Source: Chloroflexota bacterium
Lineage (GTDB): Bacteria > Chloroflexota > Limnocylindria > Limnocylindrales > CSP1-4
Direction of reading: 5' to 3'
DNA: 64,000 nucleotides
NCBI GenBank assembly: GCA_034435355.1
Contig: DAOTXE010000019.1
Coordinates: forward strand, 9,026 to 73,025
This document shows, piece after piece, positions 13,285 through 60,650 of this stretch. The first letter of the stretch is position 1; each line of letters starts with the position of its first letter. The translations under genes and the position numbers were made by a program. The notes beneath the pieces were generated by a model. The model had not been told where the DNA came from, did no database searches, and worked only from the letters and a program-made list of their open reading frames with translations.

Positions 13285-13950
13285 TCAATCGCCCGGGGGT
13301 GCCCCCCAGGCGCCTGCTGCGGCATTCCACCGACCGATCGGGCGGGCCGCGCCGGGACCTGCGCGCTGTTCGGCTCGACGCCGCGCGGTCGCAACGGTCT
13401 CGCGCCAGCCGGGAGGTCGCAGGCCGGGGGCGAGGTCGGCCAGCGGGGCCAGCACGAAGAGCCGTTCACGGGCACTCGGGTGGGGGACGGTCAGCCACCA
13501 CTGCGCGGCCGGGCCGGCCGAGCCGTCGCCGAAGCGCAGCATGTCGGCGGCGGCGCGGGCAGTCTCGGCGGCGCGGGCCGGATCCTCGCTCCGAGCCTCC
13601 GCAGGCCGCTCCACCCGGACCCGGTGGCGCCCGAAGACGAGCACGTCCAGGTCGAGCGCCCGCGGCCCCCAGCGCGGCCCATCACGTCGCCCGAACGCGC
13701 GCTCGAGACCCTTGAGCGCGACGAGCAGCGCCAGCGCCCCCGTGACGGGATCGGGGCCGGCCGGGACGTCGAGCGCCACGACGGCGTTGCGGAACTCGGG
13801 TTGGTCGACGACGCCGACCGGCGCGGTCGCGTAGAGCCGTGAGACTCCGGCGAGCCGGACGCCTGGCAGCGCGGAGAGCGCGTGGACCCCGGCCACGAGG
13901 GTGCCGACGGCATCGCCGATGTTCGCGCCCAGCCCGATGTACGCGCGCAC
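13285..13950 (-). CDS. folK: 2-amino-4-hydroxy-6-hydroxymethyldihydropteridine pyrophosphokinase (HPPK)
   Basis: VRAYIGLGANIGD...PRALDLDVLVF...WLTVPHPSARERLFVLAPLADL are HPPK signatures. The upstream part of the long minus ORF is Arg-rich and non-coding in appearance, so the start is placed at GTG 13950. Confidence 0.8.
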   Translation of the reverse strand: MRAYIGLGANIGDAVGTLVAGVHALSALPGVRLAGVSRLYATAPVGVVDQPEFRNAVVALDVPAGPDPVTGALALLVALKGLERAFGRRDGPRWGPRALDLDVLVFGRHRVRVERPAEARSEDPARAAETARAAADMLRFGDGSAGPAAQWWLTVPHPSARERLFVLAPLADLAPGLRPPGWRETVATARRRAEQRAGPGAARPIGRWNAAAGAWGAPPGD

Positions 13951-13989
13951 CCGTCCCAACCGGCCGCCTCCCGGGGTACCGTTTCGGGC

Positions 13990-15236
<1,247 letters not shown>

Positions 15237-15240
<4 letters not shown>

Positions 15241-16659: not shown

Positions 16660-17016
16660 ATGGAAGGGATCTGGTACGTCGTCGGGTTTGTCGTGGCCGG
16701 CGTCTCGTTCGTGTTCCTGACGATCGGGCTGTCGTGGCTGATCAGCCACCGCACTCGCGGGAGCCGGGGTAAGGGCCTCCCCTACGAGAGCGGGATCGAC
16801 ACTTACGGGGACACCCACGGGCGCTTCGGCGTCTCGTACTACCTGTACGCCCTCCTCTTCGTCGCCTTCGACATCGAGGTGATCTTCATCTTCCTGTGGG
16901 CGCTGGTGATCCGGGACGCGATCCCGGGCATCCTGAGCTCGATGTTCCTGTTCGTCGGGATCCTCCTCCTGGGCCTTGCCTACGCGTGGCGGAAAGGCGT
17001 GCTCACGTGGCGCTGA
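16660..17016 (+). CDS. nuoA: NADH-quinone oxidoreductase subunit A
   Basis: ...[51 protein letters not shown]. Confidence 0.9.
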
Positions 17017-17750
17017 CGGAGCGCGGCAAGCCGAACCGTGACCTGGCCGTTTCGGCCGCACCGGCCCGGGACCTGCCCGCGCCGGCGGCGTCGCCGGACG
17101 ACGCGCTGGTCGAGGCGATCGTCGTGCCGAATGCACTCTGGCGGCCCGAGGACCCGCTCGGATACGGCGGCGGCGCGCTGCGCGACGACCCGCGCCTCGA
17201 GATGCGGCGCTACGACGAGTCCGGCGAGGGCCGCCGCGACGATGCGCGCTGGGCTGCGCTGGACATCGTGCCCACCAAGGCCGACTACGTGCTGGACCTG
17301 ATCCGCATGAACAGCCTCTGGCCGCTGCTGTCGGGCCTGGCCTGTTGCGCGATCGAGATGATGTCGACCGCGACCAGCCGCCACGACATCGATCGCTGGG
17401 GGATGTTCCCGTTCCGCGCTTCCCCGCGCCAGGCGGACGTGCTCATCGTGGCGGGCACGCTCACGACGAAGATGGCCGAGCCGCTGGTCCGGCTGTGGGC
17501 AGAGATGCCCGAGCCGAAGTGGTGCGTCGCGATGGGCGACTGCACCTGCTCGGGCGGGCGCTACAAGCGCAGCTACAGCACGGTCCAGGGGATCGACCGG
17601 GTCCTCCCGGTGGACGTCTACGTCCCCGGCTGCCCGCCCCGCCCGGAGGGCCTGATCTACGGGATGATGAAGCTCCAGCAGCTCGTCAAGGAGCGCCGCG
17701 GCCACTGGGCAGAGCGCGCGATCGGCCCCACCGTCCCGGACCAGGTCTGA
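17007..17750 (+). CDS. nuoB: NADH-quinone oxidoreductase subunit B (N2 cluster)
   Basis: [17 protein letters not shown]...[10 protein letters not shown]...VPGCPPRPE, so the N2 ligand motifs are intact. The start GTG 17007 has a GGAAAGG RBS and overlaps the nuoA stop. An alternative ATG at 17202 gives a 182-aa product. Confidence 0.85.
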
Positions 17751-17753
17751 CCG

Positions 17754-18305
17754 ATGGATCGTGCCTTCCGGGTCCGCCTCGAGCGAACGTTCGGGGACCT
17801 CCTGACCGGGCCCGTCCGCCAGCGCCACGACGAGACCGAGATGCGCGTCCGCCCCGGCGACGTCCCGGCCGTGATGCGGACCCTCCACGACGACCCAACG
17901 CTCCGCTTCGAATACCTGGGCGACCTCGCCGGCGTGGACACCGGCATGGACTTCCAGGTCGTCTACCACCTCTGGAGCGTCGTGACCCCGGACTGGCTCA
18001 GGGTGATCGCCGATGGGATCCCGCGCGACCAGCCGCGCATCCCCTCGATCACGTTCCTGTGGAAGGGCGCCGAGTGGATGGAGCGCGAGGCGTACGACAT
18101 GTTCGGCCTCGTTTTCGAGGGCAATCGCGACCTGCGCCGGATCTACCTCCCGGACGACTTCGTGAGCTTCCCGCTCCGCAAGGACTTCCACCTCCCGGAC
18201 GACGCGTCGCGCTCGCCCGGCGGCGGGGTGCGCCCGATGGAGGGCGCCGCCACGCCGGCCGACGCCGCGGAGCGCACCGTGCGCCGCACGGCCACGGCCA
18301 GGTAG
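17754..18305 (+). CDS. nuoC: NADH-quinone oxidoreductase subunit C (30 kDa)
   Basis: FEYLGDLAGVD...VVYHLWS...ITFLWKGAEWMEREAYDMFGLVFEGN. Confidence 0.9.
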   Translation: MDRAFRVRLERTFGDLLTGPVRQRHDETEMRVRPGDVPAVMRTLHDDPTLRFEYLGDLAGVDTGMDFQVVYHLWSVVTPDWLRVIADGIPRDQPRIPSITFLWKGAEWMEREAYDMFGLVFEGNRDLRRIYLPDDFVSFPLRKDFHLPDDASRSPGGGVRPMEGAATPADAAERTVRRTATAR

Positions 18306-18319
18306 CGCAGGGGACGCCG

Positions 18320-19534
18320 ATGACAACCCCGACTCGGCCCAGCCTCGACGATCCGGCCCTGGCCATCCCGCTCGACCATCCCGGGATCTTCGAGCCGATC
18401 CCCGTGGCTCGCACCGAGCGCCAGCAGGAGTTCTACGACCTCCGCGACGGCGAGATGCTCCTGAACATGGGACCGCAGCACCCGTCCACGCACGGCGTCC
18501 TGCGCGTGGTCCTCAAGATCTCGGGCGAGCAGGTGGTGGACCTGGACCCGGTCCTTGGCTACCTCCACCGCGGGGTCGAGAAGATCGCCGAGAACTCCGA
18601 CTTCCACCACATCATCAGCCAGCTCGACCCGCTCGAGTACATCAGCTCCCTCTTCTGCGAGTGGAGCCCGGTGATGTCCTTCGAGAAGCTCCTCGACGTC
18701 CAGGTCCCGCGACGGGCGGAGTACATCCGGGTCCTGACGGCCGAGCTGAACCGGATCGCCAGCCACATGCTCTTCCTGGGCTGGTACGCCCTGGACCTGG
18801 GCGGGATCACGCCGATCCTGTGGAGCTTCGCCGAGCGCGACGAGATCATGGAGATGCTCGCCGCGGTCACCGGCGCGAAGCTCCTCTTCAACTACTTCCG
18901 GATCGGTGGCGTCAACGGCGACCTGAACCACGAGTTCATGAGCCGCCTCGGCGACTGGATGAGCCGGGCGGGAACCCAGCTAGAGGCCGGGATGGGCCTC
19001 CTCAACGAGAACGAGATCTTCGTCCGGCGCGCGCGCGGGCTCGGCGTCCTCGACCGCGAGACCGCCCTCCGCATGTGCACCACGGGGCCGAACCTGCGGG
19101 CGTCCGGGGTCCCCTTCGACATCCGGCGCGCGCACCCGTACAGCGTCTACCCGGAGCTGGAGTTCGACATCCCGACCCGCAACGAGGGCGACTCCCTCGC
19201 GCGCTACCTGCTCCGCATGGACGAGGTCCGCCAGAGCCTCCGGATCATCGACCAGTGCCTGCACCAGATGCCCGACGGTCCCGTCATGGCGCGCCAGCCG
19301 CGCCTCCTGCGACCGCGCCCGGGCCGGGCCTACAGCGCGGTCGAGGGACCCCGCGGGCAGTACGCCTGCTACGCCATCAGCGACGGGACCGACCAGCCGT
19401 TCCGCCTGCGGATCCACGACCCGAGCTTCCTGCACCTCCAGCTGGTGGGGCTCCTCATGCCGGGCAACCTGATCGCCGACACGATGGCGATCATGGCGTC
19501 GCTGGACCCGGTCATGGGCGGCGTGGACAAGTGA
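18320..19534 (+). CDS. nuoD: NADH-quinone oxidoreductase subunit D (49 kDa)
   Basis: NMGPQHPSTHGVLRVVLKISGEQVVDLDPVLGYLHRGVEKIAE...RIHDPSFLHLQ. Confidence 0.95.
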   Translation: MTTPTRPSLDDPALAIPLDHPGIFEPIPVARTERQQEFYDLRDGEMLLNMGPQHPSTHGVLRVVLKISGEQVVDLDPVLGYLHRGVEKIAENSDFHHIISQLDPLEYISSLFCEWSPVMSFEKLLDVQVPRRAEYIRVLTAELNRIASHMLFLGWYALDLGGITPILWSFAERDEIMEMLAAVTGAKLLFNYFRIGGVNGDLNHEFMSRLGDWMSRAGTQLEAGMGLLNENEIFVRRARGLGVLDRETALRMCTTGPNLRASGVPFDIRRAHPYSVYPELEFDIPTRNEGDSLARYLLRMDEVRQSLRIIDQCLHQMPDGPVMARQPRLLRPRPGRAYSAVEGPRGQYACYAISDGTDQPFRLRIHDPSFLHLQLVGLLMPGNLIADTMAIMASLDPVMGGVDK

Positions 19535-19544
19535 GGGCCGCGGC

Positions 19545-20882
19545 GTGGTGAGCGCCTACTGGAGCCGCCTCTCGCTGGGCTCGCGGGCGTTCCTCGTGGT
19601 CGTCCCGGCCCTGCTCGTGGTGGGCGGGCTCCTCGCCGTCGCCGTCGCCCTGTTCCTGGGGCCGGTGCTGGACTTCATCAACGCGAACCTGCCCCTGGGC
19701 CGCTTCGTGCTGGCGGCCACGGCGCTCATCGTGGTCACGATCCCGATCGCGTTCCTGATCATCTTCATGGAGCTGAAGGTGATCGCCGCGATGAACCTGC
19801 GGGTCGGGCCCGACCGCGTCGGGCCGTACGGCACGTTCATGTCCGTGGTCCACGGCCTCAAGGTCCTCTCCAAGGAGGACTTCACGCCGCTGGGCGTCGA
19901 CGTCCCGATCTTCACCCTGGCGCCGATCGTCGTGTTCGCCTCGATCCCGCTGACGCTCCTGGTGATCCCGTTTGCGCCCGGGCTGTACGGCCAGGACTTC
20001 AACCTTGCCCTGCTCTACTTCTTCGCGATCGGCGGGATGAGCGTGGTGGGCCTGATGATGGCCGGCTGGGCGAGCTTCAACAAGTACAGCCTGCTCGGCG
20101 CGCTGCGGGCCGCCGCCCAGGCGATCAGCTACGAGCTCCCCCTGACGCTCTCCGTGGTCGGGATCATCATCCTGGCCGGGACGATGAGCCTGAACTCCAT
20201 CGTCGGCCAGCAGGCGGGATCGCTCTTCGACTGGAACATCTGGAAGCAGCCGCTCGGCTTCATCATCTTCTTCATCGCTGCCACGGCCGAGGCGAACCGG
20301 ACGCCGCTGGACATGACCGAGGCGGACCAGGAGCTCGTCGCCGGCTTCGCCACCGAGTATTCCGGCATGCGCTTCGGCTTCTTCTTCTTCGCCGAGTACG
20401 TCAACGTGTTCGTCGTCTCGGCGCTCACCACGGTCCTCTTCTTCGGCGGCTGGAACGCCCCGTTCAACTGGCCGTGGCCCGTCGCGATCAGCCTGGACCC
20501 GGGTGGCCTCGGGCTCGGCCTCATCTTCCTGATCGTCCTCGCCCCCGTCCTGGGCACGATCGTCCTGGGCCTGCCGTTCTGGCTCCTGTCGAGCCGGGTG
20601 AGCACGCTGCGGGCGCTGGTGGCCGGCTTCGTCCTGTTCAACCTGCTGATCATCGGGGCATTTCTGGGCTGGGCCTTCATCAGTGCCGCCTGGGTCTCGG
20701 GCCTGGTCTGGATGATGCTCAAGACCTTCGTCTTCGTCTTCATCTTCGTCCAGATGCGCGGGACGCTTCCGCGCGTGCGCGTCGACCAGCTGATGAGCTT
20801 CGCCTGGAAGTGGCTCCTGCCGGCAGCGCTCCTGAACATCTTCGTGACGGCGACCGCCGTCGTGATCGTGGCGAACCGGTGA
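19545..20882 (+). CDS. nuoH: NADH-quinone oxidoreductase subunit H (ND1)
   Basis: MELKVIAAMNLRVGPDRVGPYG...YELPLTLSVVG...EYSGMRFGFFFFAEY. GTG start with a GAGGG RBS. Confidence 0.95.
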   Translation: MVSAYWSRLSLGSRAFLVVVPALLVVGGLLAVAVALFLGPVLDFINANLPLGRFVLAATALIVVTIPIAFLIIFMELKVIAAMNLRVGPDRVGPYGTFMSVVHGLKVLSKEDFTPLGVDVPIFTLAPIVVFASIPLTLLVIPFAPGLYGQDFNLALLYFFAIGGMSVVGLMMAGWASFNKYSLLGALRAAAQAISYELPLTLSVVGIIILAGTMSLNSIVGQQAGSLFDWNIWKQPLGFIIFFIAATAEANRTPLDMTEADQELVAGFATEYSGMRFGFFFFAEYVNVFVVSALTTVLFFGGWNAPFNWPWPVAISLDPGGLGLGLIFLIVLAPVLGTIVLGLPFWLLSSRVSTLRALVAGFVLFNLLIIGAFLGWAFISAAWVSGLVWMMLKTFVFVFIFVQMRGTLPRVRVDQLMSFAWKWLLPAALLNIFVTATAVVIVANR

Positions 20883-20892
20883 GGGTGCGGCG

Positions 20893-21726
20893 ATGAGCTT
20901 CGTGCCCGGGATGGGGATCCTCAGGGGGATGGCGCTGACCCTGCGGCGCTTCTTCGCACCCAAGGTGACGATCCGCTACCCGGAGGTTCCGGCGGACATC
21001 GCGGTGAAGTACCGCGGCCGTCTGCAGCTGCTCTACGACGAGCACGGCACGCTCAAGTGCGAGACCTGCTTCCAGTGCGCCCAGGCGTGCCCCATCGAGT
21101 GCATCGACATGGGAGGAAGCGATACGAAGGGCCGCTACGCCGTCCACTGGGGCGCCTCGGAGACCTACGGCGAGCGACGGGAGGAGGCAGCCCTCCGGCG
21201 CTCCGGCCGCGAGGTGCCGGACCCGACCTACACCCACTTCGAGGCGATCGACGTCGCCGCGGTGGACCGGATCCTCGAGAACCACGAGTACGACCCGCAC
21301 CGGATGCTCTCGATCCTGGAGGCGATCCAGGCCGAGTTCGGCCACCTTCCCGTGGCGGCGCTCAAGCAGGTGAGCTTCACCACCGGCTCGTGGTACGCGA
21401 TGATCTACGGCACCGCCACCTACTACCGGCACTTCCGGTTCGAGAAGCCCGTCGAGCAGGTCGCGGTCTGTCGCTGCACGGCCTGCCTCATGCATGGCGG
21501 CGGGCGACTCGCGGACGGGATCGCGGACGGCCTCCGGACGGGGCTCGGGCGGGTCACGCCGGACGGCCGGATCCAGCTGGCCTGGCTCCCGACCCACCCC
21601 GCCGGCGCCGCCGCGCCCCTCGTCGCGCTCGACGGCGAGCCACAGCCGGAGGTGACGCCGGCCAACGCCACCGCGTGGGCCCAGGCGCTCGCCGGGGAGC
21701 ACCCCGCGACCCGGACGATCCACTGA
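20893..21726 (+). CDS. fused NuoI-like (N-terminal, single CxxCxxCxxxCP motif) / NuoE-like (C-terminal, thioredoxin-like, partial Cys set) protein - degenerate Fe-S subunits of the nuo operon
   Basis: N-terminus ILRGMALTLRRFFAPKVTIRYPEVP...YRGRLQL...CETCFQCAQACPIECI is NuoI/Nqo9-like, but the second cluster motif is replaced by ASETYGERREEAAL. C-terminus LSILEAIQAEFGHLPVAALKQVSFTTGSWYAMIYGTATYYRHFRFEK...VAVCRCTACLMHGGGRLADGI is NuoE/Nqo2-like and lacks the distal Cys pair. Confidence 0.8.
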   Translation: MSFVPGMGILRGMALTLRRFFAPKVTIRYPEVPADIAVKYRGRLQLLYDEHGTLKCETCFQCAQACPIECIDMGGSDTKGRYAVHWGASETYGERREEAALRRSGREVPDPTYTHFEAIDVAAVDRILENHEYDPHRMLSILEAIQAEFGHLPVAALKQVSFTTGSWYAMIYGTATYYRHFRFEKPVEQVAVCRCTACLMHGGGRLADGIADGLRTGLGRVTPDGRIQLAWLPTHPAGAAAPLVALDGEPQPEVTPANATAWAQALAGEHPATRTIH

Positions 21727-21730
21727 GCCG

Positions 21731-23080
21731 ATGACCACGATCCTCCCGACCCCCGCCGCCTGGCCGCACCCGCTCCTCGGGGATGCCCCGTCGGCGGACC
21801 CGGCCGACCTGGATGCCGCGGTTCGCGCCGGGGCCTTCGCGGGGCTCGCTCGCGCGCTCAACGACCTGGGCCCCACCCTGAGCACCGTCGCGATCGCCGA
21901 ATCCGGCCTCCGGGGACGGGGCGGCGCCGGTTACCCGGCCGCCGACAAGTGGCGCGCCGTCGCCGCGGCGGCGGAGGGCATCCGCTACGCGGTGGCGAAC
22001 GGCTACGAGGCCGACCCGGCCGGGGGAACCAACCATCACCTGATGACCGCCCGTCCGTACGCGATCGTGGAGGGCCTCGCGATCGCCGCGCTCGCGGTCG
22101 GCGCGGAGGAGGCGATCCTGGCGGTCCGCGCGGAGTACGCCGACGCGGTGGCCGCGCTCGAGCTCGCGGTTGCCGAGGCGGGCGAGGCCGGGTACCTCGG
22201 CGAGGACGTGCTCGGCTCGGGGCGCACGCTCCGGATGACGGTCCGGGCCGTGCAGGGCGCCTACATGCTGGGCGAGGAGACGGTCCTTCTCAAGGCGCTC
22301 GAGGGCCGGCGCGGGCAGCCCGAACAGCGGCCCCCGTACCCGTCCGAGCGCGGGCTGTGGGGCCGGCCGACGCTCGTCCACAACGTCGCGACGCTCGCGG
22401 CGATTCCCTGGATCATGGTCCACGGCGCGGACGCGTTCCGCTCGACCGGCGATCCGGGCGCGCCGGGCACGGTCCTCGTCTCGGTCAGCGGGGCCGTGGC
22501 GACCCCCGGCATCCTGGAGGTGCCGACGGGGACGCCGCTCGCGGACATCGTCGCGCTCGCAGGCGGCGTCGCGGGAGGGCGCCCGCTCAAGGCGATCCTG
22601 GTCGGCGGGCCGTCGGGCGGGCTCCTCCCGGCCGACCTCGCGGCCACGCCCTACACGTTCGGGGCGCTCCGGGCGGCCGGCGCGCATGTCGGGTCGGGAT
22701 CGGTCGTCGTGGCGGACGACCGGAGCTGCGTCCTCGACCTCGCCCGCCTGCTGACCCGCTATTGCGCGGACGAGGCGTGCGGCAAGACGATCCCCTGCCG
22801 GGTCGGGCTGCGCCGCCTCTCCGAGATCGGCGAGCGCATGGTCGCTGGCTTCGCCCGGCCGACCGACCCGCAGCTCCTGGCCGACCTCGCAGCGGACATC
22901 GCGGGCAGCGCGTTGTGCGACCACGAGCGGCTGGCCACGGGCCCGCTCGCGACCGCGATGCGATACTTCGGGGCCGAGGTCGACGCCCACATCCTGCGGG
23001 GCGTCTGCCCGGCCGGCGTCTGTGCCCCCATCGGGACCGCCGTCGCCGCCGGTCCCGCAACTACTGCGCACGGAGGATAG
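21731..23080 (+). CDS. nuoF: NuoF-like (51 kDa NADH/FMN-binding) subunit with altered N3 cluster motif
   Basis: GLRGRGGAGYPAADKW and GAYMLGEETVLLKALEGRRGQPEQRPPYPSERGLWGRPTLVHNVATL are present. The N3 motif reads EACGKTIPCRVG, with C-x2-T-x2-C in place of C-x2-C-x2-C. Confidence 0.85.
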   Translation: MTTILPTPAAWPHPLLGDAPSADPADLDAAVRAGAFAGLARALNDLGPTLSTVAIAESGLRGRGGAGYPAADKWRAVAAAAEGIRYAVANGYEADPAGGTNHHLMTARPYAIVEGLAIAALAVGAEEAILAVRAEYADAVAALELAVAEAGEAGYLGEDVLGSGRTLRMTVRAVQGAYMLGEETVLLKALEGRRGQPEQRPPYPSERGLWGRPTLVHNVATLAAIPWIMVHGADAFRSTGDPGAPGTVLVSVSGAVATPGILEVPTGTPLADIVALAGGVAGGRPLKAILVGGPSGGLLPADLAATPYTFGALRAAGAHVGSGSVVVADDRSCVLDLARLLTRYCADEACGKTIPCRVGLRRLSEIGERMVAGFARPTDPQLLADLAADIAGSALCDHERLATGPLATAMRYFGAEVDAHILRGVCPAGVCAPIGTAVAAGPATTAHGG

Positions 23081-23091
23081 GCACGACCGCG

Positions 23092-25731
23092 ATGGCCGAC
23101 CTCGTCTCCCGGCCCCCCGACCTCCTCCCCGCCGCGCGGCCGCAGCCGATGGTCGATTCGCTCGCCGAGCGGCTGCTCCGGACCCAGTCGCCGCAGCGCC
23201 CGCAGTCCACCCCGCTGATCCGCCTGGAGGTGGACGGGCGGGTCGTCGAGGGTCGCGAGGGGCAGACGATCCTCGAGGTCTGCCGGGACAACGGGATCGA
23301 GATCCCAACCCTCTGCTACGAGCCCAAGCTGCCCGGCTTCGGGGCCTGTCGGATGTGTGTGGTCGAGGTGGCGGGCGAGGAGCACCCGCCGATCTCGTGC
23401 TCGCGGCTGGCCGAGGCGGGGATGGTGGTCCAGACCCAGACCGAGGCGGTCCGTCGCCTGCGGCGCACGAACCTGGAGCTGATCTTCTCCGACCACAACG
23501 CCTACTGCCTGCCGCCGTGCCAGAACAAGTGCCCGAGCCACATAGACATTCCGGGCTTTCTCAAGGCGAATGCGGAGGGCGAGTTCCGCGAGTCGGCCCG
23601 GATCTTCAAGCGGACCATCCCGTTCCCCTCGATCCTCGGCCGGGTCTGCCCGGCGCCGTGCGAGGAGCACTGCCGCCGCGACGAGGTGGACGAGGCGATC
23701 GCGATCCGGGACAGCCACCGCTACGCCGGCGACCAGGTGCTCCTCGCGATGCGCGAGGAGGGCGTCGATCCGCCCCTCCCGTTCGAGCTCCAGCCGAAGT
23801 CGGGCAAGCGGGTGGCGGTCATCGGCTCGGGCCCGGCCGGCGCGTCGGCCGCCTACTACCTCCTGATCGCCGGCCACGAGGTGACGATCTACGAGCGCGA
23901 CGAGGCGCCCGGGGGGATGCTCCGCTACGGCATCCCGGAGTACCGGCTGCCGAAGGAGCGGGTCCTCGACCCCGAGTACGAGAGCATCACGCGGCTCGGC
24001 GGGCGCTTCATCTGCAACCAGGCGCTCGGGCGCGACTTCAGCCTGGACGACCTCCAGAACCAGGGCTACGACGCGGTCGTCGTCGCGATCGGCTGCTACG
24101 ACACGAACAAGCTCGGGATCCCGGGGGAGGACGCGGACGGCGTCATCGACGGCCTCGAGTACCTCAAGGTCGCCACGCTCGGCCTGCTCTACCCGGGTCA
24201 CGCGGGGAAGCGGGTGGTCGTCGTCGGGGGCGGCTTCACGTCGATGGACTGCTCGCGCACGTCGGTGCGCCAGGGTGCGTCGGAGGTGACGCTCGTCTAC
24301 CGCCGCGACATGAAGGACATGCCGGCCTCGGGCGAGGTCCATGAGGCGATCGAGGAAGGCGTCACGACGATCTTCCAGGCCGGCCCGACCCGCGTCATCG
24401 CCGACGATGCGGGCAGGGTGACCGGCGTGGAGTTCATCCGGATGCAGCTCGGTGCGCCCGACGCCTCCGGCCGGCGCCGCCCGGAGCCCGCCCCCGGCAC
24501 CGAGTTCGTGATCGCGTGCGACCGGGTCCTGCTCGCCATCGGCCAGGGGCCGGACCTGAGCTGGATCGGCGCCGGCTCCGACGGCGTCGAGGCCACCCGG
24601 AACCGGCGCCTGCGGGCCGACGCGGTCACCTTCGTGACGCCGCGGCCGGGCGTCTTCGGGACGGGCGACGTCCGCAACGGCGCGCAGACGGTGGTCCAGG
24701 CAGTCGCCGACGGACGCCGCGCCTCGTACGCCGTCGACGCGTTTCTGAAGGGCCTCGACCTCGGGGAGATCAGGACCCGCCAGACGCTGGCCGAGCCGCA
24801 GCCGGAGTTCCTCAGCATCGTGCCGTTCACCTCCGAGGTGAAGGCGCCCCGCCATCGGCTGCGGAGCATGCCGGCCGAGGAGCGCCGCACAAGCTACGTG
24901 GAGTACGAGATCCCGTACACCCCGAGCGAGGCCGTCGCGGAATCGACGCGCTGCCTCCAGTGCACCTGCGAGGCGATCGGATTCTGCGACCTGCGTCGGC
25001 TGGGGATCGAGTACGGGACCACCCTGCGGACACTGGAGCCGCAGAACAACCAGGGGGCCGGCTTCCGGAGCGTGACCGAGAACCGCTTCACGGGAGCCAA
25101 CCACGACTACGTCCGCGACGACAGCCACGCCTTCATCCTCCGCGAGCCGTCGCGCTGCATCGACTGCGGCCGCTGCGCGAACGTGTGCGCCGAGGTCGTC
25201 GGGGCGGCCTGCTACGACTTCATGCGGATCGGCTTCGACACGCTCGTCACCACGCCGCTCGACATGAGCCTCAACGACACGCCGTGCGTCTCGTGCGGTC
25301 GCTGCGCCGAGACGTGCCCCACCGGCGCGCTCATGCCCAAGCCCCGGATCCTCGAGAAGTACGAGGTGGACGAGAGCCGCTGCATCCTGTGCGGGATCTG
25401 CGTCGACGCCTGCCCCTACGATGCGCTCCGCTGCGGACCCGACTTCGAGCTGGCCCACGTCAGCCGCGAGGAGCCCATGATCGACCTGATCGCGATCGCC
25501 GCGGTGGACCGCGAGACCGAGATGACCTACGTCCACAGGGAGCGCGACTGGCTGGAGCGGGCGATCGCCTCGGGGCGCGACGTCGGGCCGCGTCAACTGC
25601 CCGTGCTTCCGGCCTCGCTCGCCGAGCGGGGCGGCGGGCACGGCGGGGGTCGCGCGAGCGACCCGGACAACGGCCACAATGGCACCGGCGCGGCCGGCGG
25701 CGCCTTCCCGGAGCACGGACGCAACCGGTAG
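23092..25731 (+). CDS. chimeric Fe-S flavoprotein: NuoG N-terminal-like [2Fe-2S] domain + GltD-type NAD(P)H/FAD oxidoreductase + C-terminal 2x[4Fe-4S] ferredoxin domain (occupies nuoG position)
   Basis: [19 protein letters not shown]...[16 protein letters not shown] matches NuoG N1b. [25 protein letters not shown]...[57 protein letters not shown] and [25 protein letters not shown] match GltD. The C-terminus carries [23 protein letters not shown] and [12 protein letters not shown]. Confidence 0.85.
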
Positions 25732-25799
25732 ACCCAGCGCGAGGGCGGGCGGAAAGCCGCCCGGTCGACGCGCAGCGCAGGCTGGAGGGAGAGGAACAG

Positions 25800-26333
25800 G
25801 TGGCCATACCGGATACCATCCCGGTCCTCGGGATCAGCTGGAGCGACGTGCTCTTCCTGGTCCTTGCGGCCGTGATGCTCGGGTCCGCCTTCCTCGTGGT
25901 GACCCTTCGCGACATCATCCGCTGCGGGCTGGCGATGATCGTGGCCTTCGGGGCGCTCGCCGGGATCTACGTGCTGCTCGGCGCGCCGCTGGTGGCCGCC
26001 GCGCAGGTGCTCGTCTACATCGGCGCGATCGCCGTCCTGATCCTCTTCGCGGTCATGCTGACCCAGGCGAAGAACGCGCCCGTCCGGCTCGTCTTCCAGG
26101 CGCAGGCGTTCCCCGCCGCGATCGCCGCCATCGTGCTGGCAGTGCTGATCGCGCTCACGGTAAGCGCGACGGACTGGGGCGCGGCGGCGAAGCGGCTCGC
26201 GACGGCGACGGACGCGCTGGCCCGCCTGCTGTTCACGTCGTACGTGCTGCCGTTCGAGGTCGTGAGCGTGCTCCTGCTGATGGCCGTGATCGGGGGCATC
26301 TTCCTGGCGAAGCGCGAGGGCCGGGACGCGTGA
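25800..26333 (+). CDS. nuoJ: NADH-quinone oxidoreductase subunit J
   Basis: A hydrophobic ND6-like protein. GTG start with a GGAGGGAGAGG RBS. Confidence 0.9.
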
Positions 26334-26641
26334 GCCAGAGCCTCGACGCCTACCTCAGCGTGTCCGGGATCCTGTTCTCGATCGGCATGTTCGGGTTCCT
26401 GGCCCGGCGCAACGCGATCAGCATGCTGATGTCCATCGAGCTGATGCTGAACGCGGTGAACCTGACGATCGTCGCCTTCGGGGCCTTCATTCCCGCCCTC
26501 AACGGAACCGCCTCCATCATCGCCCTCGTCGTGATGGCGGTCGCCGCGGCCGAGGCCACGGTCGGCCTCGCGATCGTCATGGCCATCTACCGGAACCGCC
26601 GCACACCGCTGGTCGACGAGTACGACAGCATGCGCCAGTAG
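26330..26641 (+). CDS. nuoK: NADH-quinone oxidoreductase subunit K
   Basis: [24 protein letters not shown]...[20 protein letters not shown] overlap with nuoJ. Confidence 0.9.
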
Positions 26642-26663
26642 CCGCGGGAATCGGGCCGCCTCC

Positions 26664-28676
<2,013 letters not shown>

Positions 28677-28687
28677 GCAGGCAGACC

Positions 28688-30238
28688 ATGGACGCCACGT
28701 CCTTCCCGATCCTCAGCGTGATCATCTTCCTGCCCCTCGTGGGGGCGGTGGTGGTCGGGCTCATTCCGCGGCGCAACCTGGCCGCGATCCGCGGGACCGC
28801 GCTGCTCTTCGCCCTCGCGACGTGGGTCGTCAGCCTGTGGCTGGTCCTCGGCTTCCTGCCGGGACGCCAGCTGGTGGCATCCGCGGCGGGCTCGTTCGAG
28901 TTCGTGCAGACGATCGACTGGATCCCGGTCTTCGGGATCCAGTACAAGGTCGGCGCCGACGGCCTCTCGGTGGCGCTCGTAGTCCTGACCACGACACTGT
29001 CGTGGATCTCGATCCTGGCCAGCTTCTCGCCGATCAAGGAGCGGGTGAAGGAGTACATGATCTCCTTCCTCGTCCTCGAGGTCGGGATGCTGGGCGTGTT
29101 CCTGGCCCTGGACCTGTTCCTGTTCTACATCTTCTGGGAGGTGGTCCTCGTCCCGATGTACCTGATCATCGGGATCTGGGGCGGCGCGAACCGGATCTAC
29201 GCGACGATCAAGTTCGTCCTCTACACGCTCGTCGGGTCGCTCCTGATGCTGGTGGCGATCCTCGCCACGGCGTTCACCTACCAGCACGCAACCGGGTCGT
29301 GGGTCGGTGCGTTCGACCTGGAGAAGCTCGCCGGAGCCGGCTTCGACGGCACGTTCCAGGTCTTCGCCTTCGCCGCGTTCGCGCTGGCCTTCGCGATCAA
29401 GGTCCCGATGTTCCCCTTCCACACCTGGCTGCCGGACGCGCACGTCGAGGCACCGACGGCCGGCTCGGTGATCCTGGCAGGCGTGCTGCTCAAGCTCGGC
29501 GCGTACGGCTTCATCCGGTTCGCCATCCCGCTCTTCCCGCACGGCGCCCACGTGTTCGCGCCGCTCATCATCGCCCTGTCGCTCATCGCGATCATCTACG
29601 GCGCGATCGTGGCCATGGTCCAGCCCGACCTCAAGAAGCTCGTCGCCTACAGCTCCGTGAGCCACATGGGATTCGTGACCCTGGGCATCTTCATCTTCCA
29701 GGCCCAGGGCCTCCAGGGCGCGATCCTCCAGATGGTCAACCACGGCATCATCACGGGCGCCCTCTTCCTGCTCGTCGGCGTCATCTACGAGCGAACCCAC
29801 GACCGGACGATCGCGAAGATGGGCGGCCTGGGCGCGGTGACGCCGGTCTACTCGGCCGCCCTGGGGTTCTTCGTGTTCGCGTCGGTCGGCCTGCCCGGCC
29901 TGGCCGGGTTCGTCGGCGAGTTCCTCGTCTTCCAGGGCGCGTTCGCATTCAACCCGTGGGTCGGCGTGTCCGCCGCGTTCGTCATGATCTTCGCGGCCGG
30001 GTACCTGCTCTGGATGCTCCAGCGCGTGTGCTTCGGCCAGGTTTCGGAGTTCCTGTCGAACCTCGGTCACCACCTGACCGACATGCGCCCCACGGAGATC
30101 CTGACGCTCGCCCCGCTGGGCGCCCTGACGGTGGTCCTGGGCCTCTATCCCGCCCTCGTCCTGGACCTCATCGCGGGCCCGGTCAGGGCGGTCCTGGCCG
30201 CGGTCGACCCATCGGTCGCGATGGCTGTCGGCCGCTGA
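28688..30238 (+). CDS. nuoM: NADH-quinone oxidoreductase subunit M
   Basis: FYIFWEVVLVPMYLIIGIWGG...FPFHTWLPDAHVEAPTAGSVILAGVLLKLG. Confidence 0.9.
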   Translation: MDATSFPILSVIIFLPLVGAVVVGLIPRRNLAAIRGTALLFALATWVVSLWLVLGFLPGRQLVASAAGSFEFVQTIDWIPVFGIQYKVGADGLSVALVVLTTTLSWISILASFSPIKERVKEYMISFLVLEVGMLGVFLALDLFLFYIFWEVVLVPMYLIIGIWGGANRIYATIKFVLYTLVGSLLMLVAILATAFTYQHATGSWVGAFDLEKLAGAGFDGTFQVFAFAAFALAFAIKVPMFPFHTWLPDAHVEAPTAGSVILAGVLLKLGAYGFIRFAIPLFPHGAHVFAPLIIALSLIAIIYGAIVAMVQPDLKKLVAYSSVSHMGFVTLGIFIFQAQGLQGAILQMVNHGIITGALFLLVGVIYERTHDRTIAKMGGLGAVTPVYSAALGFFVFASVGLPGLAGFVGEFLVFQGAFAFNPWVGVSAAFVMIFAAGYLLWMLQRVCFGQVSEFLSNLGHHLTDMRPTEILTLAPLGALTVVLGLYPALVLDLIAGPVRAVLAAVDPSVAMAVGR

Positions 30239-30254
30239 CGGGAGCTGCCTGACG

Positions 30255-31736
30255 ATGACCTGGTCCGATTTCGCCACCGTCGCCCCCTTCGCGGCCGCCG
30301 TGGCCGTGGCGGCGCTCGTCGTCGTGGCCGACATCGTGCGGCCCGGAAACCGGCACCTGGCGCTGGGTGTTGCCCTGGCGGGCCTCGTCGGCGTCGGTGC
30401 GCTCACCCTGTGGACCGGCCAGTCGCCGGGGACCGCCTTCGGCGGCATGTACAAGGTCGACAACCTGACGACGTTCCTCGACACGATCTTCGTCGCGATC
30501 GCGGCGATCACCTGCCTCTTCGCGCCCGACTACCTCGAGCCGCGCGGGCTTCCGGTCGCGGAGTTCGCCGCCATCCTCGTGTTCGCGCTGAGCGGCGCGA
30601 TGCTGGTGTCCGCGTCCGCGGACCTCATCGTCCTGTTCGTCGGTCTCGAGCTCATGGTGATCCCGGGCTACCTGCTCGCCGGGTATCACAAGCGCGACGC
30701 GCTCTCCACCGAGGGCGCGATCAAGTACTTCCTGCTCGGCTCGTTCTCGAGCGCGATCTTCCTCTTCGGGCTCGCCTACATCTGGGGCCTGACCGGCTCC
30801 ACCCGGATCGCCGACGTGGCGGCCCGGATCGGCGCGGTCATGGCCGGCCAGGCACCGCTCTCCCCCGGTCTGGCGATGGGCCTGGCCTTCCTCACGACCG
30901 GGGTCGCGTTCAAGATGGCCGCGGTCCCGTTCCACTACTGGACGCCCGACGCGTACCAGGGCTCGCCGACGCCGGTGACCGGCTACCTGTCGGTGGGCCC
31001 GAAGGTGGGGGCGTTCGCGGTGGTGCTGCGGGTCTTCGCCGAGGCCCTCCTCCCGCTTCGCCAGGAGTGGGTGATCGTCTTCTTCGTCCTCGCGGCGCTG
31101 ACCATGACGCTTGGCAACCTCGTGGCGCTCACGCAGGACAACGTCAAGCGGATGCTCGCCTACTCGTCGATCGCCCACACCGGGTACATGCTGGTGGGCC
31201 TCGCGGCGTACGCGGCAGGGGTGCTGCAGGGCCTCGAGGGCCTCCTCTTCTACGGCGCCGCCTACGCGTTCATGAACCTGGGGGCGTTCGCCGTGATCGC
31301 CGCCCTCCAGAAGCGCCCCGGGGTCAGCAGCCGGCTGGAGACGTTCGCGGGGCTCGGGCGGCGTGAGCCGGCGCTCGGTCTCCTGATGGTCCTCTTCCTG
31401 CTCTCCCTGACCGGGATCCCACCGACGGCCGGCTTCTTCGCCAAGGCGTACGTGATCCTCGCCGCCGTGCAGGCCGGGGGATGGCTCACGGCCCTCGCCG
31501 TCATCGCCGTCCTCAACGCGGCCGCGGCCGCGTTCTACTACCTGCGGGTCATCGTCTACATGTACATGCGCGATCCGGCGGGCGAGCCGGCCCCCGTGGG
31601 CCACGGCGCGCTGCTCCGCCTGGGGCTCGCCATCACGGCAGTCATGACGGTGGTCCTGGGCCTCTTCCCGGGGCTCATCCTGACGAGCGTCTCGTCGGCG
31701 GCGCAGGCAATCGGGGTCGCTGTCGCCATCCATTAG
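30255..31736 (+). CDS. nuoN: NADH-quinone oxidoreductase subunit N
   Basis: VGLELMVIPGYLLAGY...AVPFHYWTPDAYQGSPTPVTGYLS. Confidence 0.9.
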   Translation: MTWSDFATVAPFAAAVAVAALVVVADIVRPGNRHLALGVALAGLVGVGALTLWTGQSPGTAFGGMYKVDNLTTFLDTIFVAIAAITCLFAPDYLEPRGLPVAEFAAILVFALSGAMLVSASADLIVLFVGLELMVIPGYLLAGYHKRDALSTEGAIKYFLLGSFSSAIFLFGLAYIWGLTGSTRIADVAARIGAVMAGQAPLSPGLAMGLAFLTTGVAFKMAAVPFHYWTPDAYQGSPTPVTGYLSVGPKVGAFAVVLRVFAEALLPLRQEWVIVFFVLAALTMTLGNLVALTQDNVKRMLAYSSIAHTGYMLVGLAAYAAGVLQGLEGLLFYGAAYAFMNLGAFAVIAALQKRPGVSSRLETFAGLGRREPALGLLMVLFLLSLTGIPPTAGFFAKAYVILAAVQAGGWLTALAVIAVLNAAAAAFYYLRVIVYMYMRDPAGEPAPVGHGALLRLGLAITAVMTVVLGLFPGLILTSVSSAAQAIGVAVAIH

Positions 31737-53443: not shown

Positions 53444-55738
53444 CTACGGGGCCTTGGTCGGCCTGGGCGTCGCCGAGGCCTTCGGCCTGACTGACGGCCG
53501 GCTCGAGGGACCAGGCGTCCCGCCAGCCGCCGGGCTCGCGCCCGGCGAGCTGCCCGGCGTCACCGCCGGGACCGGCTCGAGGATCGCCGTGCCGAGGGTG
53601 GTGGCGTCGATCCAGAAGATCGCCGGCGCCTGCCCCGTGGCGCCCGGCTGCACGTAGAAGGCGCGTATCTGGCTCCACGCCGGGCTCCCGCCCGCGGGCC
53701 GGTACTGGGCCTCGTACGCCCCGGTCAGCTTGTCGAACGCCAGGATGCGCCCGTTCGCGGCGTCATAGACATACAGCGTCCCCTGGCGACGTGGGTCAGG
53801 CGAGTCGACGAGGGTGTAGGTGCGGATGGGGCGGAGGACGTCGTCGCCCGGGGATGCGAGCGACCAGCCGCCGGAGCTCCCACCGACGAGTCGCTCGACC
53901 ATGCCGTTGTCGGCCAGGTAGATCTCGCCGTCGATATACATCGACGTCACCTTGCTGATGTCCTGGGGTGTTGCGAGGTAGCCGGTTGCCGCTGCGGGGA
54001 AGCTCGACCCGTCGGCGAGCATGGTGTAGCGGAGGATCTGCTGCTGCGACGGCTCCAGGACGTACAGGTTGTAGAGCGCGGCGTCGAAGTTGGCGACGAA
54101 GGTGCCGATGCCGAGGATGTCGTTGCCCCAGGAGGCCGACTCCTGGACCGGGAGCCGGAGCAGGACGCCCTTCCCCGTCGTGTCCGTCGGGCGCCAGCGC
54201 CAGAGGATGTTCTTGTCGTCGAGGACGAGCAGGTCGGGCCCCCCGACGGCGAGGAGGCGCGGCACGCCGACCTTGATCCCGGCGCTCGCCACGGCCTGGC
54301 CGGCCTTGATGATCGGGACCGCCTTGCGTGCCCGCAGGTCGATCCGGTAGACGGCCCTCGTGGTGCGGTCCAGGACGTACGGCGCCCCGTCCGGCCCCTG
54401 GACGAGCCCGGCCAGGTCGAACGGCGGGTTCTGCGAGGCAAACGAGAAGGCGGCCTGCGGCGCCACCTCCACGACCCCGTACAGCCGGTCCAGCCCTGCC
54501 GTTGTTCGCGAGCGCAGCGGCCCCACGACCGACGCGGGGGTCCCGGCCGTGGCCGCAGCCGTCTCGTTCGTCAGGGCGTCCTTGAGCAGTTGCTCGGCGC
54601 GTTGCGGATCGGCAGCGATCAGGTCGGTCCCGTTGTCGAACACCAGCCGCACGTCGTCTTTCGCGGCCGCCAGGGCCTTCTCGCCGGCGTTGATCTGCGG
54701 GATCTGGGTGGTGCCGCCCGACCCGCCGACCACCCACAGGCCGAGGCCGAGCACGGCGGCGATGCCCACGAACGCGAGCGCGGCGACGGCGGCTCGCCGC
54801 TGGGTCTCGCGGCGGGTTGCGGCGGGCGTGACCCGCCGGTACCGGGCGCCCCGCCGAGGGAGGATGTCCTGGGCCCGCCCGACGAGCCTGGCGAGCGCGC
54901 TGCCGGCCGCGCTGCGTGCCCGGGTGGCCCTCGACGAAACGGCGGCCACCCCGTCTCCGACCGAATCCGCGAGGGGGATCGGCGACCGGTCCGGGTGGCC
55001 GGCGAGCGGCTGGGCCGGGCGCAGCGGAACCAGTCGCCCGCGCTGGGCCGTGGCCGGCACCTCGTCGGCCTCGAGAGCAAGCGCGGCGTCGCTGCCCGTG
55101 CCCCCGGCCGCGACGAATCGATGATGCAGGTGCTCCATCGCCGCCTGGGGGTGCAGCGTCACGACGGCATCCTTGAGCTCGTCCGCGCCCAGCTTCGCCG
55201 TGACGTTGGTGGAGACGAGGACGAGCGAGTCCCGGACCGCGATCTCGCCCCGCCAGACGACCGGCGCCGGGTCCTCCATCGGGAGGCCGCGCTCCCGCCC
55301 TGCGTCGGGCAGGGTCATGAGGTGCGCCTGGCGGACGAGGTAGGCCTCCACGGGACCGGTCGTGACCACGTAGAGCTCGTTGCTCCGGACCACGGCCAGG
55401 CCGATCCCGATGGGACCGGTCGGCCCGTCGCCGAGCGCGAGCCGGTCCCGCTGGGCGAGGAGGCGGCGGTTCGCCGCTCGGACAGCCTTCTCGAGGCAGA
55501 CGACGAGGCCCGCGGACTCGTCGTAGTAGTACTCGCCCTGGATGGTGTCGGCGACGAGGCGGACGGCCTCGCGCAGTCGCCGTCCCTTGCCGACGCCGGT
55601 CACGACGAGGAAGAGGCTCCCCTTGGAGCGGGCCGTCGCGCCGATCGTCGGCTCGACGATGACGACGGTGTCCGGGGAGTCCTCGAGCCGCTCGGTCTCG
55701 GCCACCAGGCCGAGCTTCATCTGCAGTCGGACGGCCAT
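53444..55738 (-). CDS. membrane-anchored protein: cytoplasmic PP2C-like domain (catalytic Asp motifs apparently replaced) - TM helix - large extracytoplasmic domain with Pro/Ser/Thr-rich tail
   Basis: GSLFLVVTGVGKG aligns to DGMGG. GIGLAVVRSNELYVVTTGPVEAYLV aligns to the GDSR strand. The TM helix is AAVAALAFVGIAAVLGLGLWVV. About 400 aa of extracytoplasmic domain follow. Confidence 0.55.
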   Translation of the reverse strand: MAVRLQMKLGLVAETERLEDSPDTVVIVEPTIGATARSKGSLFLVVTGVGKGRRLREAVRLVADTIQGEYYYDESAGLVVCLEKAVRAANRRLLAQRDRLALGDGPTGPIGIGLAVVRSNELYVVTTGPVEAYLVRQAHLMTLPDAGRERGLPMEDPAPVVWRGEIAVRDSLVLVSTNVTAKLGADELKDAVVTLHPQAAMEHLHHRFVAAGGTGSDAALALEADEVPATAQRGRLVPLRPAQPLAGHPDRSPIPLADSVGDGVAAVSSRATRARSAAGSALARLVGRAQDILPRRGARYRRVTPAATRRETQRRAAVAALAFVGIAAVLGLGLWVVGGSGGTTQIPQINAGEKALAAAKDDVRLVFDNGTDLIAADPQRAEQLLKDALTNETAAATAGTPASVVGPLRSRTTAGLDRLYGVVEVAPQAAFSFASQNPPFDLAGLVQGPDGAPYVLDRTTRAVYRIDLRARKAVPIIKAGQAVASAGIKVGVPRLLAVGGPDLLVLDDKNILWRWRPTDTTGKGVLLRLPVQESASWGNDILGIGTFVANFDAALYNLYVLEPSQQQILRYTMLADGSSFPAAATGYLATPQDISKVTSMYIDGEIYLADNGMVERLVGGSSGGWSLASPGDDVLRPIRTYTLVDSPDPRRQGTLYVYDAANGRILAFDKLTGAYEAQYRPAGGSPAWSQIRAFYVQPGATGQAPAIFWIDATTLGTAILEPVPAVTPGSSPGASPAAGGTPGPSSRPSVRPKASATPRPTKAP

Positions 55739-55826
55739 GCGATTCGTCGGACCTGACGCTCGGGGGCGGGCTGGCGTGACGCCGGAGATGGACGGCAGCA
55801 GTGCGCGGCGAGGTTGCCCGCCGGGG

Positions 55827-56186
55827 TCACCGGATGATACCCCTGCCCACCACCACCCGCAGTGACTCGGCCCGGACCCCGTCGGGCATCTCCGCGAACC
55901 CTTCCAGGAGCTCGGCCGCACGGAGGACCAGCTCCTGGCCGACGATCGGGGCGCCCACATCGACGATCAGGGTGCCGTCCCGCTCCAGGCGCACCGCCCG
56001 GGACCCGCCCGCTGCCGCCGGTACGCGCGCCTGCACCAGCCGCTCCCACGCTGCGGCCGCCCGCGCCCACCGGAGCTGCTCCTCCAGGCCGAGGGCCCGC
56101 GCCGCCTCGGGGAGGAGGTCGCCGACGCGGCTGATCGGCCGCCTGCGCGGGACGCGGCGGTCGTCGTCGGGTCGTGCGGGGGACAT
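55827..56186 (-). CDS. DUF721 (DciA-like) protein downstream of recF
   Basis: RVGDLLPEAARALGLEEQLRWARAAAAWERLV...LERDGTLIVDVGAPIVGQELVL. Its position after dnaN-recF is typical for this family. Confidence 0.7.
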   Translation of the reverse strand: MSPARPDDDRRVPRRRPISRVGDLLPEAARALGLEEQLRWARAAAAWERLVQARVPAAAGGSRAVRLERDGTLIVDVGAPIVGQELVLRAAELLEGFAEMPDGVRAESLRVVVGRGIIR

Positions 56187-60577: not shown

Positions 60578-60650
60578 TTTAACGCGGCCGCACGTGGGCC
60601 GCTCGAGCCGCGGCCGGGCACCTGGCGGCACTATCGAGGCGCAGCTTCGT

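Follow-up and report, generated by a model that had tools for sequence, protein, structure and literature searches.

The 64,000-nucleotide stretch of Chloroflexota DNA analyzed here, referred to below as the window, carries an operon for respiratory complex I in which the electron input subunits depart from the canonical arrangement. The genes follow the order nuoA-B-C-D-H, a fusion of the N-terminal half of NuoI with a NuoE-like domain, a NuoF-like gene, a fusion of an NfnA/StnC-like protein with the C-terminal half of NuoI, and nuoJ-K-L-M-N (Table 1). We refer to the three unusual products as IE (the 277-amino acid fusion), NuoF' (the NuoF-like protein of 449 amino acids), and Gx (the 879-amino acid fusion). 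The operon limits were taken from a plot of G+C content by codon position together with domain searches, which place its start at approximately 16660. NuoF', the main subject of this analysis, lacks one of the four cysteines that hold the iron-sulfur cluster next to the flavin, and this loss is accompanied across its relatives by a glutamate that is a candidate for the replacement ligand.

Pfam recognizes in NuoF' a Complex1_51K domain (7e-38; PF01512, 130 bits), an SLBB domain, and an NADH_4Fe-4S domain (9e-18), the last aligning residues 336-420 with positions 1-85 of the 85 positions of the model. The score against the NuoF equivalog TIGR01959 is 346.5 bits, under the cutoff of 558.65, and that against NF010120 is 257 bits, where the cutoff of 389 is not reached. 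The translation contains GLRGRGGAGYPAADKW, GAYMLGEET, RPPYP, and YCADEACGKTIPCRVG, in agreement with a first-pass annotation of this DNA that had reported the NADH and flavin mononucleotide (FMN) motifs as retained. Among solved structures, the best match for all three input subunits of the window is NfnABC from Caldicellulosiruptor saccharolyticus (PDB: 9BOV/9BP5), followed by StnABC from Sporomusa ovata (8OH5), both of which are electron-bifurcating transhydrogenases of the Bfu family. The best solved homologs of NuoF' itself are NfnB, StnB, and HydB at about 1e-100 (3e-101 for NfnB), with Foldseek template modeling (TM) scores of 0.88-0.92 to NfnB (0.89 at a root mean square deviation of 1.3 Å), compared with 7e-82 and a TM score of 0.86 for a true NuoF, that of M. 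smegmatis. The B subunits of the Bfu family account for the top eight PDB sequence matches of NuoF' and for its top eleven Foldseek matches. Residues 42-774 of Gx match the first 700 residues of NfnA (9bov_A) at 1e-164 and StnC (8oh5_C) at 9e-141, and the NuoE-like domain of IE matches NfnC at 1e-16. On this sequence evidence, NuoF' is of Nfn/Stn ancestry and belongs, as a flavoprotein of complex I, to an input module of hybrid make-up.

The ligand motif was aligned with phmmer against all PDB chains, and the local alignments run through it without a gap. In these alignments, 'deaCGKtipCRvG' of NuoF' is paired with 'keSCGKCtyCRvG' of NfnB (9bov_B), 'keSCGKCiyCRiG' of StnB (8oh5_B), and 'eeSCGKCipCReG' of HydB (8a6t_B), and at the distal ligand 'alCdher' is paired with 'slCglgq' of the solved homologs. 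Because the alignments are ungapped, Cys350, Cys356, and Cys396 are assigned by homology to three of the four ligand positions that are canonical for the [4Fe-4S] cluster next to the flavin, and Thr353 (codon ACG, 22787-22789) falls on the fourth, the middle cysteine, as the first-pass annotation had read from the motif. The cluster goes by N3 in complex I and, in the nomenclature for Bfu enzymes, by B1 (PMC11829005). An offset that would bring all four cysteines into register was not found in the alignments to homologs and is ruled out, the alignment being gap-free for more than 100 residues on both sides. We hold these sequence-level facts about the substitution with high confidence.

The altered motif is shared by the relatives of NuoF'. 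Among its 120 best database homologs (64-86% identity), position 353 holds Thr in 113 sequences, Ser in 6, and Ala in a single one, and Cys is absent, which makes C-x2-T-x2-C the common form in close relatives. When one genome was scanned for each species, 514 proved to encode a relative; the genomes of the 80 loci kept are nearly all metagenome-assembled genomes of Chloroflexota labelled Candidatus Limnocylindrales or Limnocylindria. In the 80 loci, too, position 353 is never Cys, and Thr353 is retained across synonymous codons (ACG 59, ACC 13), as is Glu399 (GAG 73, GAA 8). Since Cys never occurs at position 353 in these homologs and the residue is held across synonymous codons, the substitution reflects neither chance nor sequencing error.

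More distant relatives, found through one representative per 50%-identity cluster, include the nearest ones to keep the cysteine within an operon of the same kind, P0121 (locus L081, 52% identity) and P0129 (locus L084, 42% identity), and a second large clade, formed by P0125 (locus L085) and 119 relatives labelled Limnocylindria, in which position 353 is Ala in 120 of 120. Comparison of these groups reveals a partner change at position 399, three residues past the fourth cysteine. This position is Glu in all 81 sequences of the clade of the window, with Thr, Ser, or Ala at 353, and in all 120 of the Ala clade; it is Gly in all 17 Cys-keeping sisters from the same operon type and in 119 of the 123 outgroup sequences (NuoF, HydB, NfnB, and similar), where Glu does not occur. 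Overall, all 201 Cys-less sequences have Glu399, and none of the 140 Cys-keeping ones does. The 123 outgroup sequences were chosen by an intact CxxCxxC, and the presence of the middle Cys in 123/123 describes the comparison set and is no independent test; apparent exceptions at 399 in a regular-expression count were misfires or frameshifted fragments. In a scan of all 449 positions, two changes are shared and derived in both Cys-less clades and absent elsewhere, at 399 and at 308. The latter is a change from Leu, the residue of the Cys-keeping sisters, to Tyr (Tyr308, 22652-22654), which is present in 95-98% of the Cys-less clades and in 4% of the outgroup.

A neighbor-joining tree with 200 bootstraps, computed with the sites of interest removed, places L081 (Cys353/Gly399) as the sister of the Thr clade with 100% support and leaves the Ala clade outside. 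This topology implies that the paired change at 353 and 399 arose at least two times, or else reverted as a pair. In the AlphaFold2 (AF2) model of NuoF' (predicted local distance difference test score, 88; predicted TM score, 0.89), Cys396 lies just before a short helix, 397-401, and residue 399 is therefore on the first turn, beside the ligand. A near-universal Gly would be expected here if the backbone packs on the cluster. Glu399, rather than Thr353, is the candidate replacement ligand. The alternative cluster ligation raised in the first-pass annotation gains support in this form, because the change of Gly to Glu399 covaries perfectly with the loss of the middle cysteine; the Ala clade makes the threonine an improbable candidate.

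Thr353 is probably not a ligand, because the sister clade carries Ala and the hydroxyl at 353 is dispensable; with one member of the Thr clade also having Ala, an oxygen ligand at this position is unlikely to be essential. Among the residues flanking Glu399, His398 is rejected as a new ligand because L081, which keeps the cysteine, has it too and the Ala clade has Leu there, and Asp397 because it is specific to the Thr clade. A census of cysteines over 81 orthologs found six to be invariant: 333, 350, 356, 396, 426, and 431. Cys345 varies (Cys 59, Ser 12, Gly 8, Ala 2) and is ruled out as a replacement. Cys333, Cys426, and Cys431 are most simply explained in another way: together with His420, which is also invariant in the 81 orthologs, they correspond to the zinc site found in B subunits of the Bfu family, His420, Cys426, and Cys431 aligning with 'H..kkCPAkqC' of NfnB and HydB and Cys333 with the cysteine of their 'TCMVD'. 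This 3Cys-1His zinc site has been described in PMC9499530 and PMC11829005, where the text identifies the ligands without residue numbers. The four residues of NuoF' are the probable equivalent, a zinc site inherited from Bfu-type B subunits. With Cys345 variable and the other invariant cysteines matching the zinc site, no cysteine would be left for N3.

A strict coupling of the N3 change to the loss of the NuoE cluster can also be rejected, since in L081 and L084 the N1a ligands, or the whole thioredoxin-like domain, are gone while all four N3 cysteines stay. Four unrelated HydB/NfnB-like proteins of the representative library that keep the extra domains (P0197, P0213, P0226, and P0242) have Gly at the third N3 cysteine (CGKCVFGREG, CGGCRPGREG, CGLCLVGREG, and CGQCTPGREG, respectively). 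Loss of an N3 ligand thus also occurs outside the Chloroflexota family.

The flavin and nucleotide site of NuoF' is largely preserved. Leu60, Arg61, Gly62, Arg63, Gly64, Gly65, Gly67, Lys73, Gly181, Glu182, Glu183, Thr184, Pro201, Pro202, and Pro204 are invariant in the clade, and NuoF' may be expected to bind FMN and NAD(H) still. Two elements vary. Residue 93 (22007-22009), the Glu of the 'NADE' motif, reported as the invariant Glu95 of E. coli NuoF, is Glu in the window and Gly in 53 of 81 clade members. The 'NNVET' motif (residues 217-220, 22379-22390) reads HNVAT in the window, with HNVQT as the commonest residues in the clade.

Table 1. Features of the complex I operon and of its input module, in window coordinates. 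GC3, G+C content at third codon positions.
Feature	Coordinates	Strand	Basis or remark
Complex I operon	16660..31736	+	Pfam/NCBIfam matches, GC3 frame plot, start positions
IE fusion	20893..21726	+	TIGR01971, PF01257, alignments to 9bov_C and 8oh5_A, cysteine census
NuoI first half in IE	~20914-21135	+	Motif C56xxC59xxC62xxxC66P
NuoE/NfnC-like domain in IE	~21241-21675	+	Second Cys pair of its 2Fe-2S site missing
NuoF-like flavoprotein NuoF'	21731..23080	+	PF01512, PF10531, PF10589
Probable 3Cys-1His zinc site	22727..23023	+	C333 (22727-22729), H420 (22988-22990), C426 (23006-23008), C431 (23021-23023)
Cluster motif C350-G-K-T353-I-P-C356	22778..22798	+	Ungapped alignments, codon positions
C396-D-H-E399-R	22916..22930	+	C396, fourth Cys ligand; Glu399 (22925-22927) in place of a near-universal Gly
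Gx fusion	23092..25731	+	Pfam; stands in the place of NuoG
Gx 2Fe-2S domain	23218-23442	+	Pfam
Gx GltD-like Fe-S/FAD/NADPH domain	23506-24714	+	Pfam
Gx two ferredoxin-type 4Fe-4S motifs	25147-25326	+	Pfam
NuoI second half in Gx	25345-25482	+	TIGR01971

On either side of NuoF', the two fusion proteins divide NuoI between them. Positions 1-65 of TIGR01971 match residues 12-77 of IE, and positions 71-116 match residues 752-797 of Gx; when the halves are joined in silico, they form a single stretch over positions 1-116 of 121 (E 2e-28), scoring 98 bits against a cutoff of 113. Each half carries one CxxCxxCxxxCP motif, both invariant in the clade, on two polypeptides and not on one chain. In a 2x[4Fe-4S] ferredoxin fold, each cluster draws ligands from both motifs, and the two NuoI clusters must therefore be assembled from two polypeptides. 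The three-gene NAD(P)H module sits between these halves, and the split of nuoI is conserved in 80 of 80 related loci as well as in more distant Chloroflexota lineages. The operon order is likewise identical in the 80 loci, as far as their contigs extend, and is the same in the more distant L081 and L085; L084 retains A-B-C-D-H-IE-F-Gx, with J-N absent from the contig part shown.

The losses that the first-pass annotation had noted in the adjacent open reading frames are present in the NuoE-like domain, in whose 2Fe-2S site the first Cys pair is retained and PTHPAG stands at the second pair of NfnC and StnA. The second pair is absent from the window and from 61 of 61 orthologs; the first pair is found in 26 of the 61. 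At the first half of this former 2Fe-2S site, IE residues 193-198 (21469-21486) read CRCTAC, three cysteines (CxCxxC) kept by the subclade of the window, in 26 of 61 orthologs. The NuoE-like domain of L081, with CxCxxC and a single 'DCH', looks like an intermediate of cluster loss, and in L084 (7334-8014) IE is 226 amino acids long and consists of the first half of NuoI together with NuoE's helical part, without the thioredoxin-like domain. Two extra cysteines lie near the ferredoxin motifs: Cys70 of IE (21100-21102; 'CPIECID', in the NuoI half) is invariant, and Cys707 of Gx (25210-25212; 'GAACYDF', past the first ferredoxin motif) is present in 64 of 65 orthologs. In Gx, the flavin adenine dinucleotide (FAD) motif GSGPAG and the NADPH-type motif GGGFT.MDC.RT...VYRR are 100% conserved, and the Fe-S, FAD, and NADPH motifs together 95-100%. 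The C-terminal tail of Gx (25600-25731), about 40 residues, is rich in Gly, Ala, and Arg and poorly conserved, and tblastn matches usually stop before it.

The window, with a G+C content of 72%, has no second, canonical nuoEFG within its 64 kb. Housekeeping genes flank the operon, with those for Lon, DnaJ, ClpB, and PurH upstream and those for a trehalose phosphatase, an MFS transporter, and DnaA downstream. The dnaA gene (58949-60673, reverse strand) lies near the end of the window, and the operon may be near the replication origin. Two open reading frames, at 13843-15240 on the forward and 53444-55966 on the reverse strand, are long, with high GC3, and have no Pfam match.

Taken together, these features suggest a model in which NuoF' serves as the B subunit in an NAD(P)H module of the NfnABC/StnABC type that has lost the parts used for bifurcation and has become connected to complex I by being inserted into a split NuoI. 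NADPH would reduce the FAD on the GltD-like domain of Gx and NADH the FMN on NuoF', and both flavins would feed the cluster chain of Gx. From there, electrons would pass to the clusters of the split NuoI, to N2 in NuoB, and on to quinone. Transfer from NADPH and NADH to quinone through the NuoI and NuoB clusters is probably the direction of flow; the substrates and physiology of the enzyme are a matter of speculation, and a transhydrogenase side reaction between FAD and FMN is possible. At the altered site, NuoF' would still hold the cluster beside the flavin, but in a site-differentiated form: Cys350, Cys356, and Cys396 would provide three ligands and the carboxylate of Glu399, on the first turn of the helix after Cys396, the fourth, with residue 353 out of use. 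We consider a Cys3-Glu [4Fe-4S] cluster the most likely form, with slightly better than even confidence in the glutamate contact and the cluster type. The broader proposal is tentative, and we put it somewhat below an even chance: that Limnocylindria, an abundant class of Chloroflexota in soil and freshwater, respire with a proton-pumping complex I in which a de-bifurcated NfnABC-type module, inserted into the split NuoI, has taken the place of the NADH module, with NADPH/FAD and NADH/FMN sites and N3 re-ligated from Cys4 to Cys3-Glu for retuning, acting as an NAD(P)H:quinone oxidoreductase and possibly as a respiration-linked transhydrogenase.

Two other explanations would deny the altered site a role. 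The first-pass annotation had suggested relaxed selection on the classical Fe-S wire. Such relaxation, or an incipient pseudogenization, would suit a module with one ligand gone in NuoF', two gone in the NuoE-like domain, and NuoG missing as such. This is very improbable, and a pseudogene is ruled out by the ratio of nonsynonymous to synonymous substitution rates (dN/dS) and by conserved synteny. The Nei-Gojobori dN/dS of NuoF' against close relatives is 0.14-0.21, around 0.17, compared with 0.02-0.11 for NuoB and NuoD, a similar 0.13-0.25 for NuoH, and 0.08-0.10 for Gx; NuoF' is the fastest-evolving subunit of the operon, with the highest dN, and purifying selection is clear nonetheless. The state is fixed in hundreds of species genomes with intact reading frames, the Gx clusters are all conserved, and the surroundings of the site (Glu348, Ala349, Cys350, Gly351, Lys352, Pro355, Cys356, Arg357, and Gly359) are invariant across two clades, as are the flavin and nucleotide loops. 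Another view holds that the NuoF-like and NuoE-like parts persist as structural remnants without a redox role, electrons entering by the GltD-like FAD and N3 being empty or irrelevant. By analogy with the electron paths of Stn and Nfn, a route from FAD to the NuoI clusters would indeed bypass the NuoF-like cluster, and the high dN of NuoF', the altered flavin-site residues, the loss of NuoE-like cluster ligands in all lineages, and the loss of the thioredoxin-like domain in L084 all fit. Against it, NuoF' keeps its dN/dS below 0.25, and its family keeps about 62 of the roughly 70 positions that are at least 85% conserved among 126 outgroup homologs, among them each Gly in the loops for flavin and nucleotide as well as GEET and PPxP. 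With three invariant ligands and a specific compensating change at the fourth position, an empty, vestigial site is the less probable state, and we regard the remnant explanation as improbable.

The closest competitor concerns the type of cluster. Loss of the middle cysteine from CxxCxxC...C is the classical signature of a 3Fe cluster, as in SdhB/FrdB, NarH, and 7Fe ferredoxins, and NuoF' could hold a [3Fe-4S] cluster in which Glu399 fills the empty corner or tunes potential or protonation. Three cysteines with a non-Cys middle residue fit such a site, and sequence cannot tell 3Fe from 4Fe; there is no invariant spare cysteine, residue 353 is Thr, Ser, or Ala, as a non-ligand would be, and position 399 lies beside a cluster-binding cysteine in the AF2 model. 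The adjoining carboxylate has a parallel in Azotobacter ferredoxin I, where one lies next to the 3Fe cluster. To our knowledge, however, 3Fe sites usually have a hydrophobic residue or Pro at the position of the missing cysteine and no compensating acidic residue, and the strict, repeated change from Gly to Glu (201/201) is more specific than the filling of a void would need. A [3Fe-4S] cluster is the less likely of the two forms in our judgment, but clearly more probable than a remnant without redox function. The Cys3-Glu [4Fe-4S] form also has a precedent in NfnSL, where a Glu-ligated [4Fe-4S] cluster sits beside the flavin and its change from Glu to Cys uncouples the electron branches (PMC9503767). 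Several points weigh against it. A carboxylate next to a 3Fe cluster would leave the identical sequence signal; Tyr308 covaries with the loss of the cysteine as well; the independence of the two events depends on a distance tree of one protein; and every sequence derives from metagenome-assembled genomes. Several canonical flavin-site residues also differ in the NuoF' family, and because the NADE Glu is Gly in most of the Thr clade, if not in the window, and the NNVET motif is changed, the FMN site may act differently or weakly.

Cluster N3 with its four cysteines is regarded as an invariable feature of complex I and of the related NAD-linked hydrogenases, formate dehydrogenases, and bifurcating enzymes. 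If the Cys3-Glu form is correct, re-ligation would retune a site that forms part of the electron-bifurcating center in the relatives. The repeated natural exchange of Cys for Ala or Thr, paired with that of Gly for Glu, could test ligand tuning of a flavin-cluster pair that governs NADH oxidation, reactive oxygen production, and electron bifurcation. The wider setting shows that the input module of complex I is exchangeable for an Nfn/Stn-type NADPH/NADH module through insertion into nuoI. An earlier survey scored many Chloroflexi genomes with 13 of the 14 nuo genes, 'missing only NuoG' (Spero et al. 2015, PMC4453560), and an Nfn/Stn-type module may explain such counts. The carriers belong to a widespread uncultured group of soil and freshwater bacteria, and with 514 species genomes matched, this enzyme may serve as the chief point of entry into respiration for a common but uncultured lineage of soil bacteria. 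In the source annotations, these proteins carry the generic names 'subunit E', 'subunit F', and 'formate dehydrogenase major subunit'. A literature search for this architecture, for complex I of Limnocylindria/Ellin6529, and for a non-Cys N3 ligand, in which subscription journals were thinly covered, found nothing relevant, and a re-ligated flavin-proximal cluster in a hybrid input module appears to have no earlier description in the literature searched.

The closest known systems are NfnABC and StnABC, which share with the window module a GltD-like FAD/NADPH domain inserted past an N-terminal 2Fe-2S domain, the H..CPAxxC residues of the probable zinc site, and the core of flavin plus cluster. 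Unlike the Bfu B subunits, NuoF' has neither a thioredoxin-like domain at the N terminus nor, at the C terminus, the 2x[4Fe-4S] ferredoxin domain that forms the ferredoxin site: its alignments cover chain residues ~112-527 of 584, its tail (432-449) is disordered in the AF2 model, and no cysteine follows Cys431. The partner 2Fe-2S site retains two of four ligands in the window and none in most of the clade, the FMN-adjacent cluster would have three Cys and a Glu instead of four Cys, the formate dehydrogenase-like domain of NfnA and StnC is replaced in Gx by the NuoI half, and the module is encoded within a nuo operon. In the mechanism proposed for Bfu enzymes, the bifurcating center is a 'flavobicluster', B1-FMN-C1 (PMC11829005); the window family is without C1, and its B1 would be re-ligated.

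With the canonical complex I N-module of NuoE, NuoF, and NuoG (T. thermophilus Nqo1-3, M. smegmatis 8E9G, and E. coli), the window shares the NuoF fold and the flavin and nucleotide motifs, and its operon has NuoA-D and NuoH-N, with NuoI-type, NuoB, and NuoD subunits present. It differs in the three-Cys N3, the lost N1a ligands, a GltD-containing fusion in place of NuoG, the order A-D, H, module, J-N, and the distribution of NuoI over two polypeptides. The first-pass picture of a degenerating classical NuoEFG is incomplete as a frame, the module being of the NfnABC/StnABC type and placed in a split nuoI.

For the ligand change itself, centre 3 of SdhB/FrdB, FS4 of NarH, and the 7Fe ferredoxins show the same alteration of the motif, to CxxXxxC with a remote Cys, in a different fold, and we know of no strictly covarying compensating Glu at these 3Fe sites. 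In NfnSL, a proximal [4Fe-4S] cluster by the flavin is held by three Cys and one Glu (NfnL Glu126), and the partitioning of electrons shifts when this ligand is changed (PMC9503767). Its fold and position bear no relation to those in NuoF', where Glu ligation is suggested by covariation. For the architecture, Mbx-like operons have a GltD-related flavoprotein in place of NuoI (Degli Esposti 2015, PMC4758237), which puts a GltD-type NAD(P)H flavoprotein at the NuoI position of a complex I-like membrane enzyme, as in the window. The Mbx-like complexes are described as NuoI-substituted and are ferredoxin- or sulfur-linked, whereas the window keeps both NuoI halves and the NuoE-like and NuoF-like subunits, and the rest of its enzyme is a full 11-subunit, quinone-type complex I.

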